36,875 nucleotides of DNA. It comes from a virus (taxonomy: Duplodnaviria; Heunggongvirae; Uroviricota; Caudoviricetes). The stretch lies in IMG/VR virus record IMGVR_UViG_2721755724_000003; one strand, given 5' to 3'. Of the stretch, positions 935 through 36,875 are shown one piece after another. Position 1 is the stretch's first letter; every line of letters starts with the position of its first letter. Both the position numbers and the translations under genes were made by a program. The notes under the pieces are model-generated. The model saw only the letters and a list, made by a program, of their open reading frames with translations, was not told the DNA's origin and did not search any database.

Positions 935-2620
935 GTGAATATAAACGTCGCCGAATTGTTAAATGGGAATTACATTCTGTTATTATTTGTGGTCCTCGCG
1001 CTTGGGCTATGTCTCGGAAAGTTACGACTTGGTTCGATCCAACTGGGTAATTCCATTGGCGTTTTAGTCGTATCGCTGTTATTAGGCCAACAACATTTCA
1101 GCATTAACACCGATGCGCTTAATCTTGGCTTTATGCTGTTTATTTTCTGTGTTGGGGTTGAAGCCGGACCGAACTTTTTTTCCATTTTTTTTCGCGATGG
1201 GAAAAATTACCTAATGTTAGCACTGGTGATGGTTGGCAGTGCGCTGGTGATCGCCTTAGGGTTAGGTAAGCTGTTTGGCTGGGATATTGGCCTGACGGCC
1301 GGTATGTTAGCAGGCTCTATGACGTCGACACCGGTTCTGGTCGGTGCTGGCGATACACTGCGTCATTCCGGCATGGAAAGCAGGCAGCTCTCACTGGCAC
1401 TGGATAATCTGAGCCTCGGGTATGCCTTAACCTATTTAATCGGTCTGGTGAGTTTGATTGTTGGTGCGCGTTACTTGCCGAAATTGCAGCATCAGGACTT
1501 ACAGACCAGCGCCCAGCAAATCGCCCGCGAACGTGGCCTGGACACTGATGCCAACCGTAAGGTTTATTTACCGGTGATCCGCGCCTATCGCGTCGGCCCG
1601 GAGCTGGTGGCCTGGACCGACGGCAAAAATCTGCGTGAACTGGGTATTTATCGACAAACCGGCTGCTACATTGAACGTATTCGACGTAACGGGATTCTGG
1701 CAAATCCAGACGGTGATGCCGTGCTACAAATGGGCGATGAAATAGCGTTGGTAGGCTATCCCGACGCCCATGCCCGACTCGATCCCAGCTTCCGTAACGG
1801 TAAAGAAGTTTTCGATCGTGACCTTCTCGACATGCGTATCGTCACTGAAGAAGTGGTCGTTAAAAACCATAACGCTGTAGGTAAACGTCTCGCACAACTG
1901 AAGTTGACCGATCACGGTTGCTTCCTTAACCGCGTCATTCGTAGCCAGATTGAGATGCCGATAGATGACAACGTCGTGCTTAACAAAGGTGACGTTTTAC
2001 AAGTCAGCGGTGATGCCCGTCGCGTAAAAACCATCGCCGATCGCATCGGCTTTATCTCGATTCACAGCCAGGTCACTGACCTGCTGGCATTTTGCGCCTT
2101 CTTTGTTATTGGGCTGATGATCGGGATGATCACCTTCCAGTTCAGCACATTCAGTTTCGGCATGGGGAACGCTGCCGGGTTGTTATTCGCCGGAATTATG
2201 CTGGGCTTTATGCGTGCTAACCACCCGACCTTCGGTTACATTCCGCAGGGTGCATTAAGCATGGTGAAAGAGTTCGGCTTGATGGTGTTTATGGCAGGCG
2301 TTGGTCTGAGCGCCGGTAGCGGTATTAATAACGGCCTGGGCGCGATTGGCGGTCAGATGTTGATTGCCGGATTGATTGTCAGTCTGGTGCCCGTGGTTAT
2401 CTGTTTCTTGTTCGGTGCTTATGTATTGCGAATGAACCGCGCGCTGTTGTTCGGCGCAATGATGGGCGCACGTACCTGCGCGCCGGCAATGGAGATCATC
2501 AGTGATACAGCTCGCAGTAACATCCCGGCGCTGGGCTATGCGGGCACCTATGCAATCGCCAACGTCCTGCTGACGCTGGCAGGGACAATCATCGTCATGG
2601 TATGGCCAGGATTAGGATAA
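935..2620 (+). CDS. ybjL: putative AAE-family transporter YbjL
   Basis: 561-aa ORF starting at GTG (935), with membrane-spanning N- and C-terminal halves around a soluble middle; length and synteny match YbjL. Confidence 0.8.
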
Positions 2621-2732
2621 AACTGAAGTTGCCCTGAAAATGAAATTTTTTTGCACAACCGCAGAACTTTTCCGCAGGGCATCAGTCTTAATTAGTGCCA
2701 CTGCTTTTCTTTGATGTCCCCATTTTGTGGAG

Positions 2733-2776
2733 CCCATCAACCCCGCCATTTCGGTTCAAGGTTGATGGGTTTTTTG
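2733..2776 (+). terminator. rho-independent terminator downstream of ybjL
   Basis: 10-bp stem (cccatcaacc / ggttgatggg) with a 17-nt loop followed by TTTTTT, about 110 nt after the ybjL stop. Confidence 0.55.
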
Positions 2777-2833
2777 TTGCCTGAAATTTAAGATGTTTAA
2801 AATCATGATGTTAGAAGCACTGTTTTTTAACGA

Positions 2834-2855
2834 TGGCGACAAAATGGCGGCAGCG
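2834..2855. repeat. att core direct repeat, ogr-proximal junction
   Basis: TGGCGACAAAATGGCGGCAGCG immediately outside the ogr stop; near-identical copy inside the int 3' end. Confidence 0.6.
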
Positions 2856-3074
2856 TCAAAGAGAGAGCGCCACCTGTCCTGATTTCATTGGATGCGGCTG
2901 AACTGGATTCGACTCTTTTGGTGTTGCAATCGAACGAACAAAAGTTTCATGGGTAACAAAAGTATGGCTGCAGTTAATGTTCTGGCACTGGTTATAACGC
3001 TCTTTGGTCAATGAAGATACCTGAAAACTGCTGCGAGTATGGGCGGCACTTCCACACAGTGGGCAAATCATCAT
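2856..3074 (-). CDS. ogr: Ogr/Delta/B-family zinc-finger late transcription activator
   Basis: CPLC...CxxxxC zinc-finger pattern and overall similarity to P2 Ogr as I recall it (about 72 aa). The ORF opens at GTG 3107; I chose ATG 3074 (MMICPLC), with ATG 3071 or 3092 as alternatives. Confidence 0.8.
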   Translation of the reverse strand: MMICPLCGSAAHTRSSFQVSSLTKERYNQCQNINCSHTFVTHETFVRSIATPKESNPVQPHPMKSGQVALSL

Positions 3075-3164
3075 TTTTCGAGTTCTCCCCATTTTTGCTA
3101 AATTCACAACAATGATACCGTATTATTCCATTTTGCAAACTTAAAAGTTCTCCATTGCGAAGAA

Positions 3165-4268
3165 TCATTCCATTTCGAAATCATCAATCCTCACTTCAAG
3201 CTCCAGACTGGTCGTAAAACCGTTATCCGGGCTGACGGTATGTGTCAGGGTGGTAATGGTCCATTCCGCATCATCTATCGGCTGTTTAAAACCACTGACC
3301 TTCACAGACATTTCCGTGTAGAGATCTGCCCGCCCTTCTGCCAGTTGTAGAGAAAATGACGCAACGCCGCGTTGCAGGCGTTCCCACTGCATTTTCGCCG
3401 CTCGTTCGGCGTTGCTCCGGTTGGCATAGGTGCGATTAAGTACCAGCACGTTTTCATCCGTACCCACCAGGTAATCGCCCTGCTTCGCTTCTGGCTCTTT
3501 CTTCTGCTTCTTAGTTCTGCGCTTACGCTTCACCGTGGTGCTTTCTTTCTTCGCAGGTTCGCGGGTATGCAACCAGCTGGCAATTACGCCCGTGTAGGCT
3601 CCGCGATCTGCCAGGGTAAATCGGTGACTGTCGCCGTCCTTGCGTGTGATAGTGATCACTGGCAGAGGTTTACCAGTGGCGCTTTTGCCCTGCCCCTGCC
3701 GGATGAATAACAGATTGCCATTTTTCACCGACGCGATGGCACCGTACTGTCTCGCCAGCCGCATCAGAAAACTGCCGTCACTCTCATTAGTCTGGTCTAT
3801 ATGCTCCACGGGCTTATCCGACAGGTCTTTACCCAGTGCCATCTTCAGCTTGTGCCGCGCGGCAATTTCCTGCACCACTTCCCCGACGGTGGTCTTATGC
3901 CACGATTTTTCACGGCGGGTATTCAGCGTTTCCCGAAAATCAGCACTTCGCGCCCGGATAGTCAGGCGGTCCGGTGCGCCAGTGTGTTCAATCTCGTCCA
4001 CTGTGAATGCCCCTTTCGGGAAAAGCGGCTGCCCCTTCCAGCCCAGCGCCAGCGTAATGACCGCACCACGGCGCGGCAGCACGATTTTTCCGTCAGCGTC
4101 ATCCAGCTCCAGATCAAGCTGGTCCGCTTCAAAGCCCCGGTTATCCGTCAGCGTCAAACTCATCAGGCGGTTATCCAGCACAGTGGTGATATCCCTGCCC
4201 TCAATACTGATGCTGAATGCGGGAGTTTTGTTGCCTTTGTTAAGCAGTTCAGAGCTGAAATTCACCAC
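3165..4268 (-). CDS. D: tail protein D (P2 gpD-like)
   Basis: 367-aa ORF in the gpD position between ogr and U; P2 synteny and size. Confidence 0.8.
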   Translation of the reverse strand: MVNFSSELLNKGNKTPAFSISIEGRDITTVLDNRLMSLTLTDNRGFEADQLDLELDDADGKIVLPRRGAVITLALGWKGQPLFPKGAFTVDEIEHTGAPDRLTIRARSADFRETLNTRREKSWHKTTVGEVVQEIAARHKLKMALGKDLSDKPVEHIDQTNESDGSFLMRLARQYGAIASVKNGNLLFIRQGQGKSATGKPLPVITITRKDGDSHRFTLADRGAYTGVIASWLHTREPAKKESTTVKRKRRTKKQKKEPEAKQGDYLVGTDENVLVLNRTYANRSNAERAAKMQWERLQRGVASFSLQLAEGRADLYTEMSVKVSGFKQPIDDAEWTITTLTHTVSPDNGFTTSLELEVRIDDFEME

Positions 4269-4747
4269 AGCAGCCCTCCCACCGTTTTACTGATATCGCT
4301 TAAGGCAGACGTTGCCGTGTCCTGCAGATTATTCAGTTGCGCACTGAGATCACCGAACATATCGGACAGGGATTCATCCACTCGTTTGAGCGACAGGGTG
4401 AACTCAATCCGGCGCGGCATACCGTCGCGGAAAAACTCCGTTTTAGTCTGATTCAGTCCCTCAATCACATACATACCGTAAATCGTGCCGCTGCCTTCAA
4501 TCAGGGGCCATGCTTTCCCCTGTTCTGCCATCTGCTCCAGTGCCAGCAACGACAGCCTGCCGCCTGTTATCTCCGGCATAAGAACACCGGAAAGCGTCAG
4601 CATGTCGTTTTCCGGTCCCAGAAACTGCGTGGACGGACGTCGGTTTACCCGACTGTTTGCCGCATGTCGCCAGCTGCGTTGATACTGCAGTTCCTGATAC
4701 GGCACGGTGCGCAGCATAAACACGTACAATCCCAGCACCATCATCAT
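4262..4747 (-). CDS. U: tail protein U (P2 gpU-like)
   Basis: 161-aa ORF between the tape measure gene and D; short overlaps with both neighbours. Confidence 0.8.
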   Translation of the reverse strand: MMMVLGLYVFMLRTVPYQELQYQRSWRHAANSRVNRRPSTQFLGPENDMLTLSGVLMPEITGGRLSLLALEQMAEQGKAWPLIEGSGTIYGMYVIEGLNQTKTEFFRDGMPRRIEFTLSLKRVDESLSDMFGDLSAQLNNLQDTATSALSDISKTVGGLLW

Positions 4748-7700
4748 GCGTCGTATCCCCCCTGATCGCTGTAGTTACTCCTGGCTTTTGCCTTCAGCCT
4801 GCGTTCACGTTCATCAAGCTGGCGTGCCACCTCCCGCGCAATATCCTGCGCACTTTGTCCTGGCTGCGTCTGAATGATGATCTGCGTCGGTGCCTCAATC
4901 CGTTGAACGAGCGGCACAGTGGCTGCGCGACTCACAATTGCTTCTCCACCTTTCGCGGGAAGTGCCAAAGGGTGCAACGGTGGAAGCTCTGCTGGCGCGG
5001 CAGCAACGCCCATCATTCCGGCAACAACGGCAGCCAGTGCAGCTGTATTTCTCCGGCTGGTCACATTTGCCGGGCCGTTAACAATTTCCGGCCCGTTTTC
5101 ACCGACGATGCCAAACTGCCCGCGCGGGATATACCCGCCGCTGTCATACATCCCCGCAAAGCCATATCCCCATGATGGAAAACCACCCGATGGCATCATC
5201 ACTTTACCGTCTGCATTCACCGTCGCAGGTTGCTGACGCGTCACGCTTTCCGGCAGTTTTGCCTTTGCGGCCTCTTTACTGACAATGCCGAGCTTCTCCA
5301 GCAACCAGGAAACGCCGGATTTCAGGGAGTCCAGCGGATGCATGACCATATTCAGCCCTTCCGCCAGTGCCTCCCCGAATCGCCGCCCCATTGCCGCTGC
5401 GCTCTGCAGTTCGGCAGAGGTCGACTTAACGGGCGTCAGCAGATCAGTAAACCAGCCCCACAGCGCCTGCACTTTGTCGCCAATCCACTGGAACACGGGC
5501 TTAAGCGGTTCGAACGCTGCACTGATGGGACCTGCCGCCGCTTTGAATCCTTCCACCACGCCACCGAGAAATGCGGTGATGGGTTGCCAGTATTTCCAGA
5601 CAACCAGCGCCACGCCCGCCAGTGCAGTAACCACAAGACCTATCGGACTGAGCAGAGCACCTAACAGACCAGATATGGCATACAGGGCAACGCGCAGCAT
5701 CGCCAGTGGACCAGATGCCAGTACTCGCAGCACCGTGCCTGCGGCGGCCAGTCCACCGCGCAGTACCGCCAGAGGATTCATAAACATCACAGCAACAGCA
5801 CGTAAACCGGATAATCCAGACCGCAAAAGTGCAACCGGCGCACCTGCTACAGTTTTCAGGACATTTCCCGTCAGTGATGCCGTGCGGCGCAAAGACGACA
5901 ACGGCGCAGTAAGTAAACCTGCGGCGTTGCCCGATGAAGCAAGCCCGCGTCGCAGCAGTGCCAGTGGTGCGCCAGCCAGCCAGGACAACGCGCTGCTGGT
6001 TCGAGTTACTGCTGCCGTAACGGAAGATAACGTTTTGATACCCAGCACAGAGAATCCCAGACGGATCACTGCCAGCGGCCCCAGCACTGCAGCCAGCGCC
6101 ACCGCTAAGGTGCCGAGGCCGACGGTAACCGCAGCCACAACAGCCGATGCTTTCATCAGTGTGCCTGTCAGTTCCGGGTTAGCTTCCACCCAGCGACGCA
6201 ACGCTCCCGTGACGCTTTTCACCGTGTACAGAATATCCATCAGCGGCTGGCGCAGCGTTTCGCCCAGGCTGCTGAAGGTGTTCTGCGCTCCGGTTTTGAC
6301 CAGCAACCACTGCGCAGAAAGTGAATCCTTGTTAATGTCGGATTCTTTCTGCATGGAGCCGAGCGCATCATTGCCCGCTGTCAGTTTTAACTGACGCTGC
6401 AGTTCCGGCAGGTTGTTTGCCAGTTTCGCCGCGTCATCGCCAAACTCTTTACCAAACAACATAGTCATGGCAGACAGGCGCTTGTCCTGCGGCAGCGCGT
6501 TTACCTTCTCCAGCACGCGCTGGATGGTTCCCATCGCATCCTTCGTCATCTGCTTTTCAATCACTTCAGGATTGAGTTTCAGCAGATTCATCCCTTCAAA
6601 GAAACTTTTGCTTTGCATGGTGGCAATGGACAATTCACGCACCATCGCGTTTGCTGCACTGGCTGCAACCTCTGGCGCAGCGCCCAGTGTCAGGAAGGTG
6701 GAACCCAGCGCCGCCGCTTTACGATAATCCAGACGGTCAGCCACACCGCCCAGACGTTGCATCACATCAATGATGTCTGCCCCTTTCGACATGGCGTTAT
6801 CATCCAGATAGTTCAGCGCATCACCGAGCTGTTCAATATTGCGGGTGGGGATTTTGTAGAGCTGGGCGATTTTCCCCAGACTTTCTGACAGTTCATCCGC
6901 TGGCAGCTCAAAGGCTGTTGCCGCCTTTGCTGCCGTACTGGCGAAGGCCAGCAGGTCACGTTTCTGATCTTCCCAACTGTCGTCAGGGTTTGCGACGTTC
7001 ATGCGCGCACCACCTTCAACCAGTGCAGCGAAATCCACCGCACCGTTTTCCATCGGCAACTGTTCGCTGGCAGCCTTGATGGCATCCTGCATTTCATAAA
7101 AACGTGCAGTGCGGTTGCCATTATCGTCACGCAGACCATTGACCTGCTTTGCCACACCTTTCATGGCATCTTCCATGCTGGTATAGCTTTTTACTGCCGC
7201 CATCACTGGTGCGCCCATTGCCAGCCCTGCAGCCGTGGTGGTGGCTCCGGCACCTGCAATACGATCACGCACCTCCAGCGAACGGGCATAACTGGCACGC
7301 GCTGCATTCATCCTGCGCTGAGCTTCCCCCAGTCGCTTCAGCCGCGCCTCCTGTTTCGAAAGTTCCTGGTTATAACGTGATGTTTCACGGGCTAAACGGG
7401 CAGTTGCTCCCGCATCGTCTTTCGCAGAAATTCCCGCCCGGTACAGTTCAGCACGCACAAGCGCCGTCTGCTGCTGCAGCTTTTTCTGGCGTTCTTCCAG
7501 GCGCTGAACAGCCAGCCGTTGACGGCCCAGAGCAACAACCTGACGTTGCGAAGGCGGCCCCATCGCTCCCAGTTCCTGACTGAGCAAATTTGCACGCTGG
7601 CGGGCATAGTTCAGCCTGTCGCCTAATTTCTGATTTTCTGCCTGCAGCTTTCGGAAGCTGTCCAGACTGCTCCCGGCCTGATCAAGCTGCTTTATTGCAT

Positions 7701-24199: not shown

Positions 24200-25261
24200 T
24201 TAATATTCAAAATTATTTTCTTCAATAGAGAACTCAATCCCTCGGGATAACTTATCAATATTCACATCAAATGCGATATCTGTTAATTCACCATCCTCGA
24301 TTTCATACATAACTTCAATTTCAATATCGAAACTAATCTCTTGAACTTCAGTTCGTGTGGTTGTCTCCATTGGAATCATTACTTTATCTTCGCTATCCCA
24401 ATACCCATTATTAAAGTCTGGACCAGAAACAGTAACTTCAAAATCTACAGAAACAGAGAAGGTCGCTAGACAATAATTATTGTCAATCTTAATTATTGAT
24501 GGTTCAAAGTCATCAATATTGACGACTTCAAATGAATCCAATTCAGCGTCTTCCCAAGTTGAAACGTTATATCCATCGGCATCATTGAGTTGGGCAATTA
24601 CGTCCGCTCTTATGTCTTCACGTTTGCTTTCGATAAACTGCATCAATTTATTACTTAATTCGTTTGTATGCGTATTGTATTCACCTAGAAACTTATCAAG
24701 TGAATCAATTTGATGAAGATTGTTTTTACCATCACAATAATTTTTTAAGTCACTATCCTCAGAAATGATATACACATCTTCATCATTAACAAATCGCTCT
24801 ACCGCAGCTAAAGTGATTGCATCAGGAAACTCACTTTTTTTCTTATTTTGCCCAAATGGTGGTTCTTTGCCAAAGTATTTATCTAAAACCTCATTAAGAT
24901 CTATCACTTCTATTGTAGCTAATTTGGCGTGACATCCTTTCAAAAAATCATCAAAAACTTTTTGTGCTGCTTCGTGAATTTCATGTTCGTTAAATTGCTG
25001 AAAAAAACCATGGAGCGGTCCATTATCAATACTATTCAAAAGCCTAGCTTTTCTTTGTACTGTGTTTATAGCCTGCAGAGCATCCTTTATTGATTCCTCT
25101 ATTTTACCTTTTACTTCTCTCTCTACAACTGTAGTTGTAATTAAGACTAAATCACCTTTCGCACATAATTCATGGAAAGCTTTAAATGCTACCCCCTCAA
25201 AATGAAGACCAGCCTTTACGTACGTTTGTGTGTCAATAAATACCTTATTTGTTTTAAGCAT
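24200..25261 (-). CDS. unassigned cargo protein, PIN-like N-terminal domain plus acidic C-terminal domain
   Basis: 353 aa, AT-rich; N-terminus carries PIN-like acidic positions (VFIDTQTY, LITTTVVEREV, YIISEDSDL); the C-terminal 130 aa or so are strongly Asp/Glu-rich. Confidence 0.55.
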   Translation of the reverse strand: MLKTNKVFIDTQTYVKAGLHFEGVAFKAFHELCAKGDLVLITTTVVEREVKGKIEESIKDALQAINTVQRKARLLNSIDNGPLHGFFQQFNEHEIHEAAQKVFDDFLKGCHAKLATIEVIDLNEVLDKYFGKEPPFGQNKKKSEFPDAITLAAVERFVNDEDVYIISEDSDLKNYCDGKNNLHQIDSLDKFLGEYNTHTNELSNKLMQFIESKREDIRADVIAQLNDADGYNVSTWEDAELDSFEVVNIDDFEPSIIKIDNNYCLATFSVSVDFEVTVSGPDFNNGYWDSEDKVMIPMETTTRTEVQEISFDIEIEVMYEIEDGELTDIAFDVNIDKLSRGIEFSIEENNFEY

Positions 25262-25728: not shown

Positions 25729-27306
25729 CTACAATACTTTTCTCTCGATGGTATTTTTAATGGTCAACATATCTTTAGGAATACTTTTTTTCCCCTCTAT
25801 ACGTATGGTAAACACAAAAAGAATAACGGCTGATCTCACAATTTTCATGAGTTGTAAGAGCTGTTTCTCAAACTTTTCTTTCTCAATAAATCTCACCTCA
25901 TCAAAAAATCCATAAGAATTATATAAATCAACTAACATGTCTTTCTCGTGAATAACTAACAGTTTATGTTCTAAATCATTCCTCCATTCTTTAAAAAAAG
26001 CAAGCTCACCATTTTTATCATTCAAATCCATAGCAATACTAAACAAACCCAGCAATCCTTTATTATTTATTTTGTTTATTTTAAGCTTTCTTTTTTCATC
26101 ACTAATCCGCCAGAAGTTATGAAAGTATATATGTCCTCTATCTGGTTTTAAATCAAATAATTGACACAGAGCAACTGCTATTTTATCCAAGATACCAAAG
26201 CAAGCTCTAAATGCAACCCTTAACTTCTCAACATTTTCATACAATATTTCTCCATTATACAATTCAGAATAACATACCTCCGAATCCTCATCAAAAAACT
26301 CACTATCAACCTTATATTCAAAAAACATTTTTCGTGCTAAGGAATACTCAGCTTTAAGTCTATTTAACACCATTTCCATTGGCACTATAAAATCACCAAA
26401 CACACCTTCCTCGGTGGTCGCAATAGTTATATTATCTTTAGATGACGCATAACAATTGCAATATAGCGAATGATCAGACAACATTAGATTATTATCTATA
26501 CAAAACCTCTGGTAGTTTGATAAAGTATCATACTCCTCCTGCGTGAGCCTTTCATCTGTACTTATATCCTCTATGCCATATACACATGATTCACTCAATA
26601 TACTTTCGTTGTACTTTATTTTTCTTTGAAGAGCAACCTTCCATGAAGGAAAACATTTCCCTGACTTTATTGCACACTCATAACCTCGAATAACTTCTTT
26701 AATCATTTTATATGTATATGTTGTAGATAATTCATTAAGCAATTCTAATGCCTCAGATCTGTTTACCCACGCCTGAGGAATTGAGTTATCAATAGATATT
26801 GCTTGTTCATAATAATCCATTGATTCAGATATACGATATTGTTTTTTTAATACATTAGCTAGATTAACTATTAAATCAGGGGGCACCCATCCATCTTCTT
26901 GTGAAAGTTTAAACGCTTTCCAGTAATTATTTTTTACATCATTCAGCTTAATGAAACTATCAATATCTGCATTGTCATTAGGATTAAAATCAAGAACTGC
27001 GCTCATTCCATTTGCCAAGTTATAGTAATATAAAGATTCTTTCATTATAGTCAGAAATTCATTTTTATTGTTTATAAAGATATTTAAGCCTTCCTCCGCT
27101 ATATTTTTTACATTACTAAAATTTCCGATATCAATAAGATTTCCGGCCAAATTAGATAATATAATTATTCTATTTTCTTTGATTGTATTTATCTCATCGA
27201 TACCGTTAAGAATATCCTTTACATTTTTATAGGCAGAATCAAATGAACCTGCATTAATAAGATCATCTACGAACCCCATTTTTGAAACAACATAGTTGAT
27301 ATCCAT
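25729..27306 (-). CDS. unassigned cargo protein, TPR-like N-terminal region plus C-terminal HEPN-motif region
   Basis: 525 aa, AT-rich; TPR-like stretch (YYEQAISIDNSIPQAWVNRSEALELL) and C-terminal EWRNDLEHKLLVIHE matching the HEPN Rx4-6H signature. Confidence 0.55.
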   Translation of the reverse strand: MDINYVVSKMGFVDDLINAGSFDSAYKNVKDILNGIDEINTIKENRIIILSNLAGNLIDIGNFSNVKNIAEEGLNIFINNKNEFLTIMKESLYYYNLANGMSAVLDFNPNDNADIDSFIKLNDVKNNYWKAFKLSQEDGWVPPDLIVNLANVLKKQYRISESMDYYEQAISIDNSIPQAWVNRSEALELLNELSTTYTYKMIKEVIRGYECAIKSGKCFPSWKVALQRKIKYNESILSESCVYGIEDISTDERLTQEEYDTLSNYQRFCIDNNLMLSDHSLYCNCYASSKDNITIATTEEGVFGDFIVPMEMVLNRLKAEYSLARKMFFEYKVDSEFFDEDSEVCYSELYNGEILYENVEKLRVAFRACFGILDKIAVALCQLFDLKPDRGHIYFHNFWRISDEKRKLKINKINNKGLLGLFSIAMDLNDKNGELAFFKEWRNDLEHKLLVIHEKDMLVDLYNSYGFFDEVRFIEKEKFEKQLLQLMKIVRSAVILFVFTIRIEGKKSIPKDMLTIKNTIERKVL

Positions 27307-27593
27307 TCAATCCTCTTTAAACTAAGCTAATAATACCAATCATTATATGGATGAGATCAATATAGAACATGCCATCTCCGGCAAAAATCGTACTACATCA
27401 GACCAGTGCCCTTCAAATAATATAAATTGAACTTAGATACTTCTGCTTCAACCAGTGTGTTAAATCCATCGCTTGAACTCAGAACAAAAAGCGGACGATC
27501 ACTTATCAAAATGGCCGTCCACCTAACGCCTCGTTTCACTCGTTGCCCAAAATAGTCCCCCATCAGAATGAATCCTCTTGGGGGCAACGTTTC

Positions 27594-27827
27594 TTAATGC
27601 AGCCAGCTGTCGTCTTCCCACACCTTCTGCATAATTTTCATCACTTGCTTCCTTTCTTCGTCCAGTTGCAGTCCGGTTAGTTCCACACCGTTAGAGCTAC
27701 CTTTGCGAATGCGAATTACCGTTTTGGGATACAGGGGGCACAGATTGCGGTAAAGCTCGGATTCAAGGGCGTCCAGGGTAGACTGGCTAATCTTCTGCTC
27801 TTTATCGATCACTATTTCAATGCGCAT
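27594..27827 (-). CDS. DinI-family protein (Tum C-terminal-domain-like)
   Basis: Start placed at ATG 27827; from MRIEIVIDKEQ..., which resembles the N-terminus and C-terminal WED/W motif of E. coli DinI. Confidence 0.7.
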   Translation of the reverse strand: MRIEIVIDKEQKISQSTLDALESELYRNLCPLYPKTVIRIRKGSSNGVELTGLQLDEERKQVMKIMQKVWEDDSWLH

Positions 27828-27837
27828 AAAAGTCACC

Positions 27838-28026
27838 TCAGCTGATGACATCCATTGAGCGGTTGTATTCGTGGGTTCTGATTTTTGCCATGAGTTCATC
27901 TGTTAGTTCAGAAACCCACTGCAGAGCCAGCCCCTTCTCTTCATCACTACACTCACTAGCCGCTACAAGCTTAAGAAAAAAATCAATGCGCTGGAGCTTC
28001 AAAGACTCCAAAAAATAGTCCTGCAT
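27838..28026 (-). CDS. small SOS-promoter-proximal protein (possible Tum N-terminal part)
   Basis: 62-aa ORF from ATG 28026 with a strong AGGAGG ribosome-binding site; first gene downstream of the LexA box. Confidence 0.45.
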   Translation of the reverse strand: MQDYFLESLKLQRIDFFLKLVAASECSDEEKGLALQWVSELTDELMAKIRTHEYNRSMDVIS

Positions 28027-28069
28027 CTTTCCTCCTATGACACCACAAGAAATACTGTATGTATAACCA

Positions 28070-28085
28070 CTGTTTATATTTACAG
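28070..28085. promoter_or_regulatory. LexA operator (SOS box)
   Basis: CTGTTTATATTTACAG is a perfect CTGT-N8-ACAG with AT-rich spacer; a degenerate overlapping box (TACTGTATGTATAACCAC) lies at about 28053-28070; both sit in the promoter region of the 28026 ORF. Confidence 0.7.
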
Positions 28086-28179
28086 TATATAATAATCTTA
28101 CTGATGTAAAACGTTTTTTTACGTTCATCAGCCTGATATGCCTGGTATTATTAAGAGCACGAATTGTTAATCCGCGTAA

Positions 28180-30594
28180 TTAATACAGGTTCCGCCACTT
28201 ATCATCTTCCCGCAAACACTGGTTCCGATAGAAGATACGCAAGCCTGCTCCTGACGGAATACTGCCGCCGCGAAGGAGTAAATCGACCTCTTTCTCGCTA
28301 CCATCAAATCCTCTGGACTTCAGCTCATAGACGAGCTGCAGTCGCTGATGGTCTGTAATTCGCTGTTTGTAGTCTTTACGCCGTTTCGGTTTCACCAGGC
28401 GTAACCTTGCAGCCAGTTCCCGGCGCTCTTTTTTGTTCATACTGTGCAGGTAATCGTGCAACTCCTTGTCATCCATGCTGGTAATGTCCGTTCTGGGGTC
28501 CCCATCAGCTGATTTATCTTTCTCCTGTTGGTTCAAATTTTCAGCAAGGGGACAGTTATTGCCACGAGTCCAAGGGGCGCAAGCGCCCTGGTCGGCTGCC
28601 GCCTCCTGAATGTCAACGGCCTTACGAACCATTTTCCACTTCACGGCATGAGTGCAGATCTTGCCCTCTGCAATAGGTGACCAGATGCCATAAATACGAA
28701 TGCCGTGATCGCCATAGGCGGTCGGCTCTTCGTTGATTTCATAAGCAGTTCTGATGAGGTGATATTTGCGGGGAACCAGTACGCCGCCCTGCTTCATGAT
28801 GTAGGTGGCAAAACAACCAGCATCAGCAGCAGCCAGGATTGCATCAAGGCGCGGGTTATCCAGTACCGGCGCACCTGCTTTTTTGTCCCCCTGTTGCCTT
28901 GCCGCCTGACCAGCCAGCAATCGCAGTTCACGGTAAGCCTGACGCCCCGGAATGCCAAAGAAGCGGAATTGCTGAACACGATGCAGAGACGCCCAGGCAT
29001 TAACGTATTCAGCATTATCACGCAGGGATTTCCCCGTTTCCTTGCTGATCTCGCCAGCCAGACCACGCCCGTCAATGTTCTTACTGATGTATTTCGCGAT
29101 GTAGCTTGTTGGCGTACCTTTGCGCGGGTTAATCAACTCAGACTTAAAGCGCGGTCCAGTGTTATTGCCCAGCTCCTCGCGGTCTTCACGGATGGCAAAC
29201 TTACGCAGTAATGCAGTGATGGCGCGGCGGTCTTTTTTGCGCATAAAACACAACAGGTGCCAGTGAACTGTACCGTCATGATGCGGCTCAGCCACCCGCA
29301 CGCCATACCAGCGCAATCCGGCTTTGTGCATCGCCTTACGAAATGCAGCAAACATGCCGACCAGATAATCACTACTTTGTCTTACCGTCGCATTTGTCCA
29401 GGTTGGGTTGGGCCTGCCGTTATTTAGCGTGGAATGGAAACGTGACGGACAGGTGATGGTGTAGAAAACGGCGCAGTCACCGCGCATTTCCGCGATAAGC
29501 TCCAGACCTTTAACACAGGCCATCATCTCATTGCGGCGATGCGCAGGGTTGCTGCTGCTGGCGTTTACCACATCCTCCATGTCCAGCGTGTCGCCGTCTT
29601 CGTTCACCAGTTCATGAGAACGGAAAAACTCCAGCGACTTACGGCGCTGCTCACGTTTATGCATCACGGCTTCATAGCTGACATAAGGAGATGCTTTTTT
29701 GCTAACCAGGCAGACAGCGCGCAACTGCTCTTCCCGCCATTCGCAACGCATCTTCCATAATTTCCGATACCACCAGTCAGCGCACAACATACGCGCCAGC
29801 GAACCCGGAATGAGTTCATAGGGCACGGGTTTACGGCGGTTTCTTTTCCGGCGGAGTTGCTCAAACGCAGGCGGGATGACATCCAGACGCAGGGTTTCCG
29901 CTGCCACCTTTTCCCATGTATTGCGGATTTCTTCTGGCTTAACGTCATCGGTGACATACAAATCGCCACAAGCTACATCAAGGCACATGCTCATATGCGC
30001 AGCGACAAGGGTAGACAAGCGTTTCACCTGATCCTGACTCATTTCAGGCAGGATCAGCAGGCCGTCCAGCCCTTCATGGCTTGCCATAAAGCGAAAAGAA
30101 GTGGATAGCTGACTGTCGCGTACATGCTCCAGTCGTTCCAGACATGGCTTAATCGTCTCACGCAAATAGCGGGAATAAGCCTTTGGCCTGCCCAGGCTGC
30201 TGAAGTATTCAATACGTTGCATCAGCGGCTTGCTGATATGGGAAGGCTGGGCATTGACGTCCGCCAGAATGACCATGTCCGGGTTAAAACGCTGCTGCTC
30301 ATGCGCCAGCTTTGCCCGACTAATGAGCTTATCCTGCTCCATTTCGCGCTGGACAGGATCACGGGATTCATTAAAGAAATAACGCTCCCAGACCTGATCA
30401 CTCAGCGCCTCACGGCGCAGCTGTTCCTGCTCGTTATCGGCAGCGTACAGAGTGATCAGATTTGAAAGCGCAGAAACCGGCGCAACTTCCGCCGGGTCCA
30501 GATAAGGGTTAATGGCCTTTTTCGGGCTGTTCCATGAGAATGCTGCGGCGACCTCGTTAAAGCCGCTAGAGTTGCTCATATCGTCATGACTCAT
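28180..30594 (-). CDS. A: replication initiation endonuclease (P2 gpA-like rolling-circle initiator)
   Basis: 804-aa ORF with a YIAKYISK-type tyrosine motif; position matches A of P2/186. Confidence 0.85.
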
Positions 30595-32735: not shown

Positions 32736-33245
32736 TCACAGCAAACCGAATGAAGCACCGAGGCCAGTCACGGTATCAACTGCACTCGCCATCGCAGGAT
32801 TAGCCTGTAAACGGGCCTGCAATGAAACAGCCGCCAGCGCCATCAGTCGTGTTACAGAATTAATGCTGCTGATCGCATCGCGACGGCCTGCACTGGTTTT
32901 TACATCGCCAGAAACCGCACCTGCAGCAACACGCCCGATCTCTGCGGTTGCACTCATGACGTAATGTGGCAGTCTCTCTTTTGCCACCTCATTTACCGGT
33001 ATACATGGCAGGCAGTGAATCTGAGCCAGAAATCCATCAACCAGTGTTGGGTCTTCAGTGAGATCGGTTAACTGCCAGATATCTGACGCAGTAAGTTGGT
33101 GTGGTTGTTCCGGGTTGAGCTTGTTACGCAAGGTTTGAACGTTCATACCTGCGCGCTCTGCCAGCTTCGCCATGTTGTGTCGTAGGGCGAAGGCCCGGCA
33201 GGCTTCATTGAAATGGGGATGTTTTGAAATGCGATAGTCAAACAT
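32736..33245 (-). CDS. cII: 186 CII-like lysogeny establishment regulator
   Basis: 169 aa (the same length as 186 CII) with an N-terminal HTH-like region; position after apl. Confidence 0.7.
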   Translation of the reverse strand: MFDYRISKHPHFNEACRAFALRHNMAKLAERAGMNVQTLRNKLNPEQPHQLTASDIWQLTDLTEDPTLVDGFLAQIHCLPCIPVNEVAKERLPHYVMSATAEIGRVAAGAVSGDVKTSAGRRDAISSINSVTRLMALAAVSLQARLQANPAMASAVDTVTGLGASFGLL

Positions 33246-33277: not shown

Positions 33278-33499
33278 CTAGTTGATAGTCACGTTGCAAT
33301 CAGAGAGGGCATCGATCGTCATCGCAGCAATGTTAATCATCACTTTTTCACGCTTTTTATCCTTACGTAGGCGATGACGAGGCAAACGCCCATCTGCAAG
33401 CATGTCGTTAATTGTGTCGATAGATAAGCCAGTGAGTTCACTATATCTTTCTATAGTAACGTGGGGGGTGATGAGAGTGATTGAAATGTTAGGTCTCAT
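33278..33499 (-). CDS. apl: Apl/Cox-like excisionase-repressor
   Basis: Small HTH protein divergent from cI; start placed at ATG 33499 (MRPNISITL...), since the longer ORF begins with TTG. Confidence 0.6.
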   Translation of the reverse strand: MRPNISITLITPHVTIERYSELTGLSIDTINDMLADGRLPRHRLRKDKKREKVMINIAAMTIDALSDCNVTIN

Positions 33500-33624
33500 G
33501 ATGCAACATTCCTCTTTTAGCAATGATTAATCAGGATGAATACTGATCGTTTGTATTATGTGAACACTGCAAACATACGATCACATCATGAAATCGTCAA
33601 GGTAAAAGTTCACTTGGAGTGACC

Positions 33625-34188
33625 ATGAATTTGGAAAAAGGCGGTCGTGGGGCCATAGAGCGCATGGTTGAAGCCTATGGTTTCAAGACAAGACAAGCTT
33701 TGTGTGATCATTTGGGCATTTCTAAAAGCACCTTAGCCACGCGCTATATGCGTGATTCATTCCCGGCAGAATGGGTAATCCAATGTGCACTTGAAACCGG
33801 CACGTCGCTAGAGTGGCTAACTACTGGGCAAGGTTCAAAAGAAAGTTCACAAAAAGAAAACACAAAAGAGATCGAAAGGAAGATTTTATCAAGCGGAAAA
33901 CTACTTCCTGATGGTTACTACATTTTCGACAACAACTTTTTGCCTGAAAAACTAAAAAAACCTTTTGTTGTGATCGATGGCGCATCAGAGTTTATCTGTG
34001 ATTCGGATTATGAGGATGTACGTGATGGTAAGTGGATCGTTGATATTGATGGCGAGGTTGCTATCAGGAATCTGACAAGACTGCCGGGACGTCGTCTAAA
34101 TGTCGATGGCGGCAGCAGTTCCTTTGAATGCAAAATAGATGAAATTGATATCATAGGAAAAATTAGAAGCGCGATCGTCAATTATTAA
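33625..34188 (+). CDS. cI: 186-type CI immunity repressor
   Basis: About 187 aa with an N-terminal HTH ([20 protein letters not shown]) and a C-terminal domain; start at ATG 33625 with GGAG upstream (the ORF track opens at GTG 33619). Confidence 0.75.
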
Positions 34189-34211
34189 AATTAATGTATA
34201 AGGAAATAAAT

Positions 34212-34397
34212 ATGTTTTATAAATCTATACATATCCTACTTATTTGTTTATTTATTACGTTACCTATTACAAGTTTTGCAAAAAATTATCCATGTTCTGG
34301 TAAGAAAGGGGGAGTTTCACATTGTACATCTGATGGGAAGTTCGTTTGCAATGATGGAACGCAAAGCAAGTCAAAGAAAATATGTTCTAAAAACTAA
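34212..34397 (+). CDS. small secreted Cys/Lys-rich peptide
   Basis: Start at ATG 34212 with an AAGGA ribosome-binding site; signal peptide [23 protein letters not shown], then a mature part of about 38 aa with four cysteines. Confidence 0.5.
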
Positions 34398-34408
34398 GGT
34401 TGCTTCAT

Positions 34409-35740
34409 ATGAATAATGATATGACTTTTGAAAACAGAGATGAGTATAATAGAAAAATCATTGCTGAAAAAATAATAAGCTTACTCGAGTCCCCCTTAAA
34501 AATATCCCCTATTGTTATCGATGGGGACTGGGGTACCGGTAAAACCGAATTTTCAAAAAAATTAGCGGCATTGATTGAAAAAAATGAATCTGGGCATAAA
34601 GTAGTATATATTGATGCATTTACTGAAGATCATAATGATGCTCCCATACTTACTATAATGGCTGCAATAGTTGCATTATATCCAGAGAGTGAAAAGAAGG
34701 AATTAATATCAAAGGCATTACCAGCATTGAGATTTGGACTTAAAACTGTACTCAAAGCTGGCGCTGGGTGGATTTTAAAACAAAATGCAGATGATATTGC
34801 GGATGAATTCGAAGATGCTATTAAAGATGCGGCTAACTCAGCTATAGATGGTACTGTAGAAGCACTGCTTGATGATCATATTGAAGCAAAGAAACATTTG
34901 CTTGCTCTCAAGGAAGTACTTGCTGAACTAACTAGCGAAAATAAAATAACAATTATCATTGACGAACTTGACCGTTGTAAACCAAGCTTTGCCATCTCTA
35001 TCATCGAAAATATAAAACATGTTTTTGACACTGAAAATCTTAACTTCTTGTTAGTTGCTAACATCTCACAATTGAAAGCATCAATAAATCATATTTACGG
35101 TGCAGGTGTTGACTCAGAAAGATATCTTGATAAATTTATAAAATTCACTTACAGCCTGCCAGTGACTTTCACTGAAAACAATTACGATAAAATTTTGGCT
35201 TCGAACTCTCATTTTAGAATGCTATGTAACGAGTCTGAAAGACTAAAAGAAATTGGAGAAAGTAGTATTCATATAGTTCAAAAATTTATCGAACTAAAAG
35301 GCTTGTCGCTACGGGAAGTTGAAACCTTATCAAGATATCTAGAAATTTATCAAATTTTATCTCAAAATGAAATCAGCAATAAATTTATACCAGGCTATTG
35401 CTGTTATCGAACCCTTGCAGTAATTCTTTATTCGTTTGGTCGTGAACTGGCCCTTAACTACGTAGAAGATAAAATAGATGCACAATTAATAATCAATTTC
35501 TTCGGTGTTAATAGACTCCCATATCAGACAGATCAATATAACATCAACATCTACTATTATGCATTATTTGGTATAACTTATAAATATATGCCAGAAGGTT
35601 CTCCTTTACTTCCTTCTGAAAACGATGAAAAAAACAGATGGGCTGAAATAAGTGATTATCATATTTTAAAAGGAAATGCAGGTGTAGAAGACCCTGTTAG
35701 AATATTCAAAAACACCTTAAAAGTTTTCTTGCTCCAATGA
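34409..35740 (+). CDS. KAP-family P-loop NTPase
   Basis: Walker A GDWGTGKT, a YIDAF motif after it (KAP proteins have NAW-like motifs there) and Walker B IIIDELDRC; AT-rich; sits between cI and int. Confidence 0.7.
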   Translation: MNNDMTFENRDEYNRKIIAEKIISLLESPLKISPIVIDGDWGTGKTEFSKKLAALIEKNESGHKVVYIDAFTEDHNDAPILTIMAAIVALYPESEKKELISKALPALRFGLKTVLKAGAGWILKQNADDIADEFEDAIKDAANSAIDGTVEALLDDHIEAKKHLLALKEVLAELTSENKITIIIDELDRCKPSFAISIIENIKHVFDTENLNFLLVANISQLKASINHIYGAGVDSERYLDKFIKFTYSLPVTFTENNYDKILASNSHFRMLCNESERLKEIGESSIHIVQKFIELKGLSLREVETLSRYLEIYQILSQNEISNKFIPGYCCYRTLAVILYSFGRELALNYVEDKIDAQLIINFFGVNRLPYQTDQYNINIYYYALFGITYKYMPEGSPLLPSENDEKNRWAEISDYHILKGNAGVEDPVRIFKNTLKVFLLQ

Positions 35741-35797
35741 AATGTTTGATTGAAGATCTTTAAACATTGACCACTGTTCAAACATACAGTTAAATTT

Positions 35798-35822
35798 AGT
35801 CCTCAGACATGAGGACTTTTTT
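35798..35822 (+). terminator. rho-independent terminator abutting the int start codon
   Basis: Stem agtcctca / tgaggact with a 4-nt loop, followed by TTTTTT, then ATG at 35823. Confidence 0.55.
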
Positions 35823-36875
35823 ATGGCAGTACGAAAACTCAACACAGGTAAATGGATTTGTGAATGCTACCCCGCCGGGCGCAATGGGCGGCGTGTGCGT
35901 AAGCAGTTTGCAACTAAGGGTGAAGCATTGGCTTTTGAGCGTCACACGATGGAAGAAACCGGAGCAAAACCCTGGCTGGGTGAATCAGTGGATCGTCGAA
36001 CACTGAAAGACGTGGTTGAGCTATGGTTCAAACTACATGGTAAATCTCTGACGGCTGGGCAGCATGTCTATGACAAATTGCTGTTGATGGTTGACGCTCT
36101 GGGAAATCCCATTGCAACCGATCTCACCTCTAAAATGTTTGCCCACTATCGAGATAAACGCCTGACAGGAGAGATCTACTTCAGCGAAAAATGGAAGAAA
36201 GGAGCAAGCCCGGTCACCGTTAACCTGGAGCAAAGCTATCTAAGTAGTGTTTTTAGCGAACTATCCCGCTTGGGCGAATGGTCGTATCAGAACCCACTGG
36301 AGAACATGCGAAAATTCACCATCGCAGAAAAAGAGATGGCATGGCTTACCCATGAACAGATTGTTGAATTGCTGGCTGATTGCAAACGTCAGGACCCAAT
36401 TCTGGCACTGGTAGTCAAGATATGCTTAAGCACAGGCGCACGCTGGCGAGAAGCAATAAATCTTACCCGTTCACAGGTGACTAAATACCGAATTACCTTT
36501 GTCAGAACGAAGGGGAAGAAAAACAGAAGCATTCCCATCAGTAAAGAGCTTTACGAAGAGATCATGGCACTTGATGGGTTCAATTTCTTTACAGACTGCT
36601 ATTTTCAATTTTTATCCGTGATGGAAAAAACGTCTATCGTGCTCCCTCGCGGTCAACTGACACACGTTCTGCGTCATACGTTTGCGGCGCATTTTATGAT
36701 GTCGGGTGGAAACATCCTGGCCTTACAAAAAATTCTCGGGCATCACGATATAAAAATGACGATGCGTTACGCACATCTGGCACCGGATCATCTGGAAACG
36801 GCGCTCCGTTTCAATCCTCTTGCAACGCTGCCAAGTGGCGACAAAGTGGCGGCAGCGGTTGGCATTACCCCGTAA
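35823..36875 (+). CDS. int: tyrosine integrase (P2/186 Int-like)
   Basis: 350 aa with C-terminal HxxR and RYAHL catalytic-tyrosine motifs; the att core repeat lies in its last codons; the stop is the final triplet of the window. Confidence 0.85.
   Translation: MAVRKLNTGKWICECYPAGRNGRRVRKQFATKGEALAFERHTMEETGAKPWLGESVDRRTLKDVVELWFKLHGKSLTAGQHVYDKLLLMVDALGNPIATDLTSKMFAHYRDKRLTGEIYFSEKWKKGASPVTVNLEQSYLSSVFSELSRLGEWSYQNPLENMRKFTIAEKEMAWLTHEQIVELLADCKRQDPILALVVKICLSTGARWREAINLTRSQVTKYRITFVRTKGKKNRSIPISKELYEEIMALDGFNFFTDCYFQFLSVMEKTSIVLPRGQLTHVLRHTFAAHFMMSGGNILALQKILGHHDIKMTMRYAHLAPDHLETALRFNPLATLPSGDKVAAAVGITP
36836..36857. repeat. att core direct repeat, int-proximal junction
   Basis: TGGCGACAAAGTGGCGGCAGCG within the last codons of int; pairs with the 2834-2855 copy. 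Confidence 0.6.

Follow-up and report, generated by a model that had tools for sequence, protein, structure and literature searches.

A two-gene tum operon of the Fels-2 type as the probable SOS switch of a 186-like prophage

Induction of phage 186 depends on the antirepressor Tum, which is expressed from the LexA-repressed promoter p95 and sequesters the CI repressor (PMC7708051). The protein has the appearance of a fusion between an antirepressor and DinI (Lemire et al. 2011, PMC3121763), and passages of the same paper report that the tum region is split in two in Fels-2 and PSP3 (citing Bunny, Liu and Roth 2002), that the antirepressor activity of PSP3 lies in the upstream gene (citing E. 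Christie), and that the lethality of lexA null alleles is linked to Fels-2 (citing Bunny et al. 2002). Here we analyze a module of this kind in IMG/VR virus record IMGVR_UViG_2721755724_000003, a stretch of 36,875 nucleotides (nt) that we call the window. An open reading frame (ORF) of 62 codons, ORF1 or tumA-like, is followed on the minus strand by a DinI-like one of 77 codons, ORF2 or tumB/dinI-like, and both stand behind a LexA-type operator. Very probably, in our view, this module serves a Fels-2/186-type (Peduoviridae) prophage as its SOS operon, with Tum in its two-gene form. The analysis covers the anatomy of the locus, its homologies, its conservation, the purifying selection acting on it and the type of its CI, which is non-cleavable; for the pathway of induction we draw on 186, PSP3 and Fels-2. 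A literature search on TumA/TumB returned unrelated papers only.

An operator and promoter of the p95 design

The tumA-like gene lies directly downstream of the replication gene gpA (28180-30594, minus strand), is read in the same direction and is the first gene of a separate operon. The order gpA-then-tum is common to 186, Fels-2, PSP3, a Yersinia phage and an ESSI2-like phage. Between the two genes, at 28070-28085, we found the CTGT-N8-ACAG motif that a preliminary description of the locus had read as a perfect LexA operator. It is contained in the 20-mer TACTGTAAATATAAACAGTG (28087..28068, minus strand), a predicted site, here called box 1, for which consensus match, weight matrix and conservation all speak. 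Box 1 differs from the LexA consensus TACTGTATATATATACAGTA at three of 20 positions and is the sole site in the window with three or fewer mismatches; none of 100 shuffled windows contained such a site. Scored with an approximate weight matrix derived from known LexA sites of E. coli, it reaches 23.8 bits, the top value in the window, where the E. coli sites themselves span 12.7-26.7 bits and the top scores of shuffled windows had a mean of 12.3 and a maximum of 18.4 bits. The degenerate overlapping box of the preliminary description exists as well: a weaker, putative LexA-like box 2, CAGTGGTTATACATACAGTA (28053..28072, minus strand; 17.4 bits), shares five nucleotides with box 1. Its ACAGT right half is kept at fixed spacing in most Enterobacteriaceae loci and is absent from the Pantoea, Erwinia and Tatumella loci. 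Another LexA-like match, at 25058-25077, was discarded, with 13.1 bits and a poor right half.

Conservation sets box 1 apart from its surroundings. When the gpA-tum intergenic regions of the window, Fels-2, 186, PSP3, the Yersinia phage and the ESSI2-like phage were aligned, TACTGT-N8-ACAGT was the sole invariant block, and its flanks varied. For a closer comparison we assembled 33 loci from 33 Enterobacterales species that carry a relative of ORF1 (71-100% identity), which together with the window make 34. Box 1 is present in 32 of them, the exceptions being one decayed pseudogene and one locus whose contig stops 53 nt upstream, while spacer and leader are variable across the loci. The promoter was assigned by its likeness to the annotated p95 of 186 (TTCACA, 18 bp spacer, TACTGT) and by conservation in 32 aligned relatives. 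Its -35 hexamer, TTTACA (28105..28110, minus strand), is read from the sequence, matches the TTCACA of p95 and is kept as TTTAC(A) in those relatives; the -10 hexamer, TACTGT (28082..28087, minus strand), follows after 17 bp and lies inside the LexA box, just as in p95, and TATACTGT is invariant among relatives. By the precedent of 186 p95, PSP3 and Fels-2, and with indirect support from the phylogenetic footprint, LexA would occupy this operator and release it upon DNA damage.

Two genes rather than a broken fusion

The tumA-like gene, a predicted antirepressor, occupies 27838..28026 on the minus strand and consists of 62 codons and a TGA (27840-27838). Its ATG at 28026 is preceded, at a distance of four bases, by the Shine-Dalgarno sequence AGGAGG (28036-28031), and its product is 98.4% identical to Fels-2 STM2728. 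The tumB/dinI-like gene follows at 27594..27827 on the same strand, with 77 codons and a TAA and with a Shine-Dalgarno sequence of its own, GAGGTGA, that spans the tumA stop codon. Its ATG at 27827 (MRIEI...) lies 10 nt past the ORF1 stop, and the same start is used in E. coli DinI, Fels-2 STM2726.1 and PSP3 TumB. Thus, the order of a 62-amino-acid ORF and a DinI-like one of 77 is as first described, and the overlap of the two at 27838-27899 is not; it was an artefact of listing the longest ORFs, because the mechanical list had taken an in-frame ATG upstream (27899) as the start of ORF2.

ORF2 matches the Pfam DinI family PF06183 over residues 14-76 (E 2.6e-22; 79.3 bits against a cut-off of 24.2) and can be aligned colinearly, over residues 1-75, with the E. 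coli DinI structure 1GHH in the PDB (E 6e-6). It is 97% identical to Fels-2 STM2726.1 and 41% identical to residues 71-145 of 186 Tum (E 1e-23), which agrees with the statement, in the preliminary description, that the C-terminal part of Tum is DinI-like. Against NCBIfam equivalog NF007893, the model for chromosomal DinI, it scores 41.4 bits, below the cut-off of 111. By these matches ORF2 is a phage DinI-like paralogue and not an orthologue of host dinI. Binding of RecA filaments and modulation of the SOS response may be expected of it by analogy with the DinI family.

The preliminary description had left two possibilities for this arrangement, a genuine split or a frameshift. If the two ORFs were the remnant of a single fused, 186-like tum, interrupted by a frameshift or a sequencing error, the locus would be a pseudogene or would need ribosomal frameshifting. 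Such a view has its attractions, since 186 Tum is one protein of 146 amino acids with the same order of domains, and the ORFs of the window lie in different frames only 10 nt apart. The comparative loci point the other way. ORF1 has exactly 62 codons in 30 of the 34 loci, spread over many genera, and among the 30 distinct 62-codon genes the ratio of nonsynonymous to synonymous substitution (dN/dS) is 0.07 (median dN 0.067, median dS 0.96; 309 informative pairs), with constraint at the protein level along the whole length, up to the gene's own stop. Where dinI follows tumA, it does so after 9-12 nt and in relative frame 0, +1 or +2 depending on the locus, with its own Shine-Dalgarno sequence and ATG; 18 loci have it intact, 13 lack it, and in three it is truncated or broken. 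Fels-2 and PSP3 show the same layout in their annotations, and it recurs in complete E. coli genomes, where the module was found in 1123 of 5426 (~21%). Even 186 translates its DinI-like part separately, from an internal GTG. Purifying selection on a 62-codon gene, together with a dinI that may stand in any of three frames or be missing, argues for a true two-gene arrangement, and we give the frameshift next to no credence. By this comparison tumA and dinI are to be regarded as two independent genes, of which tumA is the constant one.

The 186 subfamily offers a useful counterpart. Among 80 IMG/VR loci of that subfamily, 62 carry a fused tum gene of 143-146 amino acids, and 18 carry a stand-alone Tum of 63-64 amino acids without dinI. 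The window is not of the fused architecture, as a stop codon and 10 nt separate two ORFs in different frames.

These counts also bear on the question of which product would act as the inducer. One could suppose that the DinI-like protein is the effector of induction and that the 62-amino-acid ORF encodes a leader or regulatory peptide; proteins of the DinI family do bind RecA filaments, and of the two genes only the DinI-like one is named in databases. However, 16 of 34 relatives have tumA and the LexA box but a missing or broken dinI, and the gene is likewise missing from the 18 loci with a stand-alone Tum of the 186 type. The DinI-only products of 186 are annotated as modulators, not inducers, the report on PSP3 cited above credits the upstream gene with the antirepressor activity, and the constraint on tumA is on the protein throughout. 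We therefore think it very unlikely that DinI is the effector, and we retain TumA as the candidate inducer.

Downstream of dinI, a hairpin formed by GGACGGCC and GATCGTCC and followed by the T run GCTTTTTG (27486..27520, minus strand) is the candidate terminator of the operon. It was identified by RNA folding, is the counterpart of t95a in 186 and probably ends the operon; a generic terminator scan missed it because its loop is long. Related phages are homologous as far as the dinI stop codon, beyond which variable cargo lies. A second hairpin, at 27849-27832, includes the tumA stop and the dinI Shine-Dalgarno sequence and looked terminator-like in the scan. We considered it as a structure for translational coupling and dropped it, because it occurs only in the window and one near-identical relative and not in other loci.

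TumA and its presumed target, CI

BLASTP was replaced by profile methods for the comparison of ORF1 with 186 Tum. Against PHROG, ORF1 matches phrog_698 (E 3.6e-38), phrog_8554 (2.4e-8) and phrog_1993 (2.2e-3), and 186 Tum matches the same three families, phrog_1993 (1.4e-22), phrog_8554 (1.4e-11) and phrog_698 (2.7e-5); PSP3 TumA falls in phrog_1993. When a 19-member ORF1 family was compared by hhalign with the N-termini of 18 Tum proteins of the 186 type, residues 2-43 aligned with residues 2-43 (E 3.6e-4). In a joint alignment the first 48 residues need no gap, and M1, E7, L20, C26 and A34 are invariant. The profile links, the identical genomic position and the shared promoter design support the homology, so that PSP3 TumA and the N-terminal half of 186 Tum are, as far as sequence can tell, distantly homologous to ORF1. 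AlphaFold2 models ORF1 as two helices, at residues 2-23 and 28-61, that form a hairpin (mean predicted local distance difference test score (pLDDT) 89.7), and it places the invariant Cys at the turn between them. Foldseek found only non-significant helical-hairpin matches to this model in the PDB (best E 1.6), a search of PDB sequences with the TumA-family profile found nothing, and neither Pfam nor NCBIfam has a model covering the family.

Relatives of TumA in a large protein collection are nearly all unnamed. The proteins of the pair are named "hypothetical protein" and "DinI-like family protein" by PGAP in the complete E. coli genomes, so that the likely trigger of induction lacks a functional name in about 1100 of these genomes as well as in RefSeq and in phage records, all of which call it "hypothetical protein"; a more informative annotation would be a direct gain. 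In Klebsiella phage records MK416009 and MK422454 and in one UniRef entry, a TumA-family protein is labelled "levan regulatory (domain) protein", a label that no analysis here supports.

The presumed target of TumA is the CI immunity repressor at 33619-34188 on the plus strand. The window as a whole is a P2/186-like (Peduoviridae) prophage, its best matches being Klebsiella phages Kp4860-7 and 4LV2017 (95.7% identity over 77%; 25 kb queried), and its immunity region is of the 186 type, with CII at 32736-33245 and an Apl/Cox-like gene at 33278-33523 that diverges from CI. A Pfam scan of CI matched only PF07022 (Phage_CI_repr) and PF16452 (Phage_CI_C) and found no S24 peptidase domain. Over its full length the protein is 37% identical to 186 CI; compared with Fels-2 CI it is 41% identical overall, 72% in the N-terminal and 30% in the C-terminal domain. 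With no S24 domain and this likeness to 186 CI, it therefore belongs to the class that is not inactivated by RecA-stimulated cleavage. A tumA module under LexA control would explain how the prophage can be SOS-inducible although its CI is not RecA-cleavable.

By analogy with 186, PSP3 and Fels-2, we suggest the following course. In the lysogen, LexA would sit on the operator, covering both the -10 region and the transcription start of the p95-like promoter. DNA damage would activate RecA, LexA would cleave itself, and the promoter would fire. The 62-amino-acid TumA homologue, a helical hairpin, would then bind the 186-type CI stoichiometrically and keep it off its operators, as 186 Tum and PSP3 TumA suggest; the early lytic promoter would be freed, Apl would be made, and the prophage would excise and grow. 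The DinI-like TumB, translated from its own Shine-Dalgarno sequence, would probably act by tuning the RecA filament and the SOS signal rather than as the inducer itself. The place of the module as the equivalent of Tum, proposed in the preliminary description, is borne out by position, promoter design, order of parts, the 186-type CI and the profile links.

Several observations weigh against this account. No alignment of ORF1 with 186 Tum was returned by BLASTP, and the hhalign match of the two families has a probability of only 37%, because both profiles are short and shallow; of the alignment to Tum that had been asked of the whole module, ORF2 thus provides its part directly and ORF1 by profiles only. 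A generic sigma-70 scan of 27300-28400 found no promoter, and the -10 hexamer fits the consensus at only three of six positions, so that the sigma70 promoter first described as overlapping the box stands by its likeness to p95 and its conservation, and not by the generic scan. The antirepressor role of PSP3 TumA goes back to a personal communication cited in the literature. Finally, action of this TumA on this CI is an assumption, because the CI is 41% identical to that of Fels-2 although the TumA is 98% identical.

The last point can be developed into a different account, in which the operon is under SOS control and its TumA does not act on the resident CI, either because the two have been mismatched by recombination or because TumA induces other prophages in trans; the prophage would then not be SOS-inducible through this operon. 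TumA proteins 98-100% identical to that of the window do occur with CI proteins only 41-65% identical to the window CI, and across 28 Fels-2-type loci the divergence of TumA is uncorrelated with that of CI (Mantel r ~0, p 0.47). Trans-acting antirepressors are documented for Gifsy and Fels-1 (PMC3121763), and in one Pantoea stewartii locus a Fels-2-type TumA is combined with a 186-class CI. On the other hand, among 84 distinct CI sequences from Fels-2-type and 186-type loci, 83 have their nearest neighbour within the same Tum subfamily. The N-terminal domain of the window CI is 72-95% identical to those of the partners of near-identical TumA proteins, and this class always accompanies this TumA type. 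Moreover, long-term purifying selection on tumA and on its LexA box in all these contexts argues for a gene that keeps working. We regard a mismatch as improbable, although less so than the two alternatives weighed above, and prefer the reading in which TumA acts on the CI of its own prophage.

The distribution of divergence along CI is informative in this respect. Median pairwise identity within the Fels-2-type group is 66% for the N-terminal domain and 34% for the C-terminal domain; between the two Tum groups the corresponding values are 38% and 30%. Tum type therefore tracks the class of the CI DNA-binding domain, and the C-terminal domain is nearly as diverged within classes as between them. 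Within the class, a near-invariant TumA is found alongside CI proteins that diverge by up to ~40% in the N-terminal domain and are almost unrelated to each other in the C-terminal one. From the link to the N-terminal class we infer that the N-terminal domain of CI presents a conserved face that TumA recognises; TumA would accordingly be a class-wide rather than an immunity-specific antirepressor that docks on that domain. If so, cross-induction of co-resident P2/186-like prophages of different immunity would be possible. The link between Tum type and CI class, without fine co-variation inside the class, offers a working hypothesis on the TumA-CI binding site and on cross-talk among P2-like prophages.

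The CI repressors are mosaics of independently exchanged domains. That of L041 (Klebsiella sp. R390) is 95% identical to the window CI in the N-terminal domain and only 34% in the C-terminal one, and that of L009 (Escherichia sp.) is 85% and 58% identical, respectively. The sole exception among the 84 is the locus of P. stewartii ATCC 8199 (L030, NZ_CP046558.1), whose TumA is 84% identical to that of the window, whose CI is 60% identical to 186 CI and whose CII is 90% identical to the window CII; it may be a mismatched recombinant, or it may be evidence of a broader range of TumA. Five loci without a CI match were considered as carriers of a different repressor type, and this was rejected, as they are prophage remnants or, in the case of L019 (Raoultella sp. 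BIGb0138), a disrupted prophage. In L019 a Mu-like transposable prophage (2200-7500), with genes for a 699-amino-acid transposase, a 319-amino-acid MuB-like ATPase, a Ner-like protein and a repressor, lies inside the 5' end of gpA of a Fels-2-type prophage; the tumA-dinI operon and its LexA box are still intact there.

The int region, cargo genes and known systems

A second LexA-like box, also putative, lies upstream of int. This CTGT-N8-ACAG site, CACTGTTCAAACATACAGTT (35772-35791), scores 19.5 bits, above every shuffled-window maximum. It falls in the region 35769-35822 ahead of the int ATG at 35823, in the 17-bp spacer of a promoter-like TTGACC...TTAAAT, and is followed by a hairpin, GTCCTCA-gaca-TGAGGAC, and a run of six T that extends right up to the int start codon. 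Upstream of the ATG, GAGG occurs only once, in the 3' arm of this hairpin. Box, hexamers and hairpin, the last with compensatory changes, recur ahead of this int allele in L009, L018 and L041 as well as in phages KP12 and 4LV2017; they are conserved despite differing upstream cargo and are absent where int directly follows cI. The site may be an SOS-controlled int promoter or an attenuator. If the box is functional, the SOS response would switch on both the inactivation of the repressor and the supply of Int. It is possible, though on balance doubtful, that we have here a pair of features not described before: at least two deep TumA subfamilies each tied to one CI N-terminal class, and an SOS-controlled box at int.

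In most relatives int comes directly after cI, without intervening cargo. In the window the interval (34194-35740, plus strand) holds a KAP-family P-loop NTPase of 446 amino acids, which matches the PADLOC candidate defence system PDC-S20 (E 1e-171) and is preceded by a 67-amino-acid ORF that is rich in Cys, hydrophobic at its N-terminus and matched by no family. Another cargo gene, at 25729-27306 on the minus strand, is low in GC and encodes 525 amino acids that comprise TPR repeats and, at the C-terminus, an LA2681-like HEPN domain (Pfam E 1.8e-38); it is probably an anti-phage or abortive-infection gene. It stands just downstream of the SOS operon on the same strand, in the slot of orf97 in 186 and of STM2726 in Fels-2, and read-through from the LexA-controlled promoter might reach it. 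SOS inducibility of the prophage would bear on its induction by antibiotics and on the spread of its two defence-like cargo genes.

How closely the module agrees with described systems differs from case to case. In Fels-2 of Salmonella LT2, STM2728 and STM2726.1 share with it the position after gpA, the promoter, the LexA box, the second half-site, the 10-nt gap and the frame relation, and the proteins are 98% and 97% identical, whereas the Fels-2 CI is only 41% identical and the gene after dinI encodes 243 amino acids there instead of the 525-residue TPR/HEPN protein; STM2728 is still a "hypothetical protein" in databases. PSP3, too, carries its SOS operon behind gpA as two genes, and its LexA box is TACTGTATAAATATACAGTA. 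Its record describes tumA (60 amino acids) as "similar to 5' end 186 tum; UV induction of prophage" and TumB as a DinI homologue of 77 amino acids. However, PSP3 TumA falls in the 186-type subfamily (phrog_1993), with only ~14% identity to ORF1, and the PSP3 genes are in the same frame with a TAG and one codon between them, whereas those of the window are in different frames and separated by 10 nt. With 186 the module has in common the design of a LexA-repressed promoter whose -10 lies inside the operator, the place of the operon after gene A, and a non-cleavable 186-type CI as the target, here presumed, of the antirepressor; the internal GTG of 186 tum is at a position equivalent to the ORF2 start. 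It differs in that 186 Tum is a single 146-amino-acid fusion whose N-terminal half is ~15-20% identical to ORF1 and detectable by profiles only, and in that 186 has a single LexA box and orf97 downstream.

A more distant parallel is found in the dinI-gfoA/gftA modules of Gifsy-1/2/3 in Salmonella, where a LexA-controlled small antirepressor is likewise paired with a dinI homologue and the repressor is sequestered, not cleaved (PMC3121763); there, dinI comes first, the phages are lambdoid, and the repressor and antirepressor families are unrelated. Since the split tum of Fels-2 and PSP3 is already in the literature, the module of the window is therefore the Fels-2 allele of a described system, one that is already known and very common rather than new.

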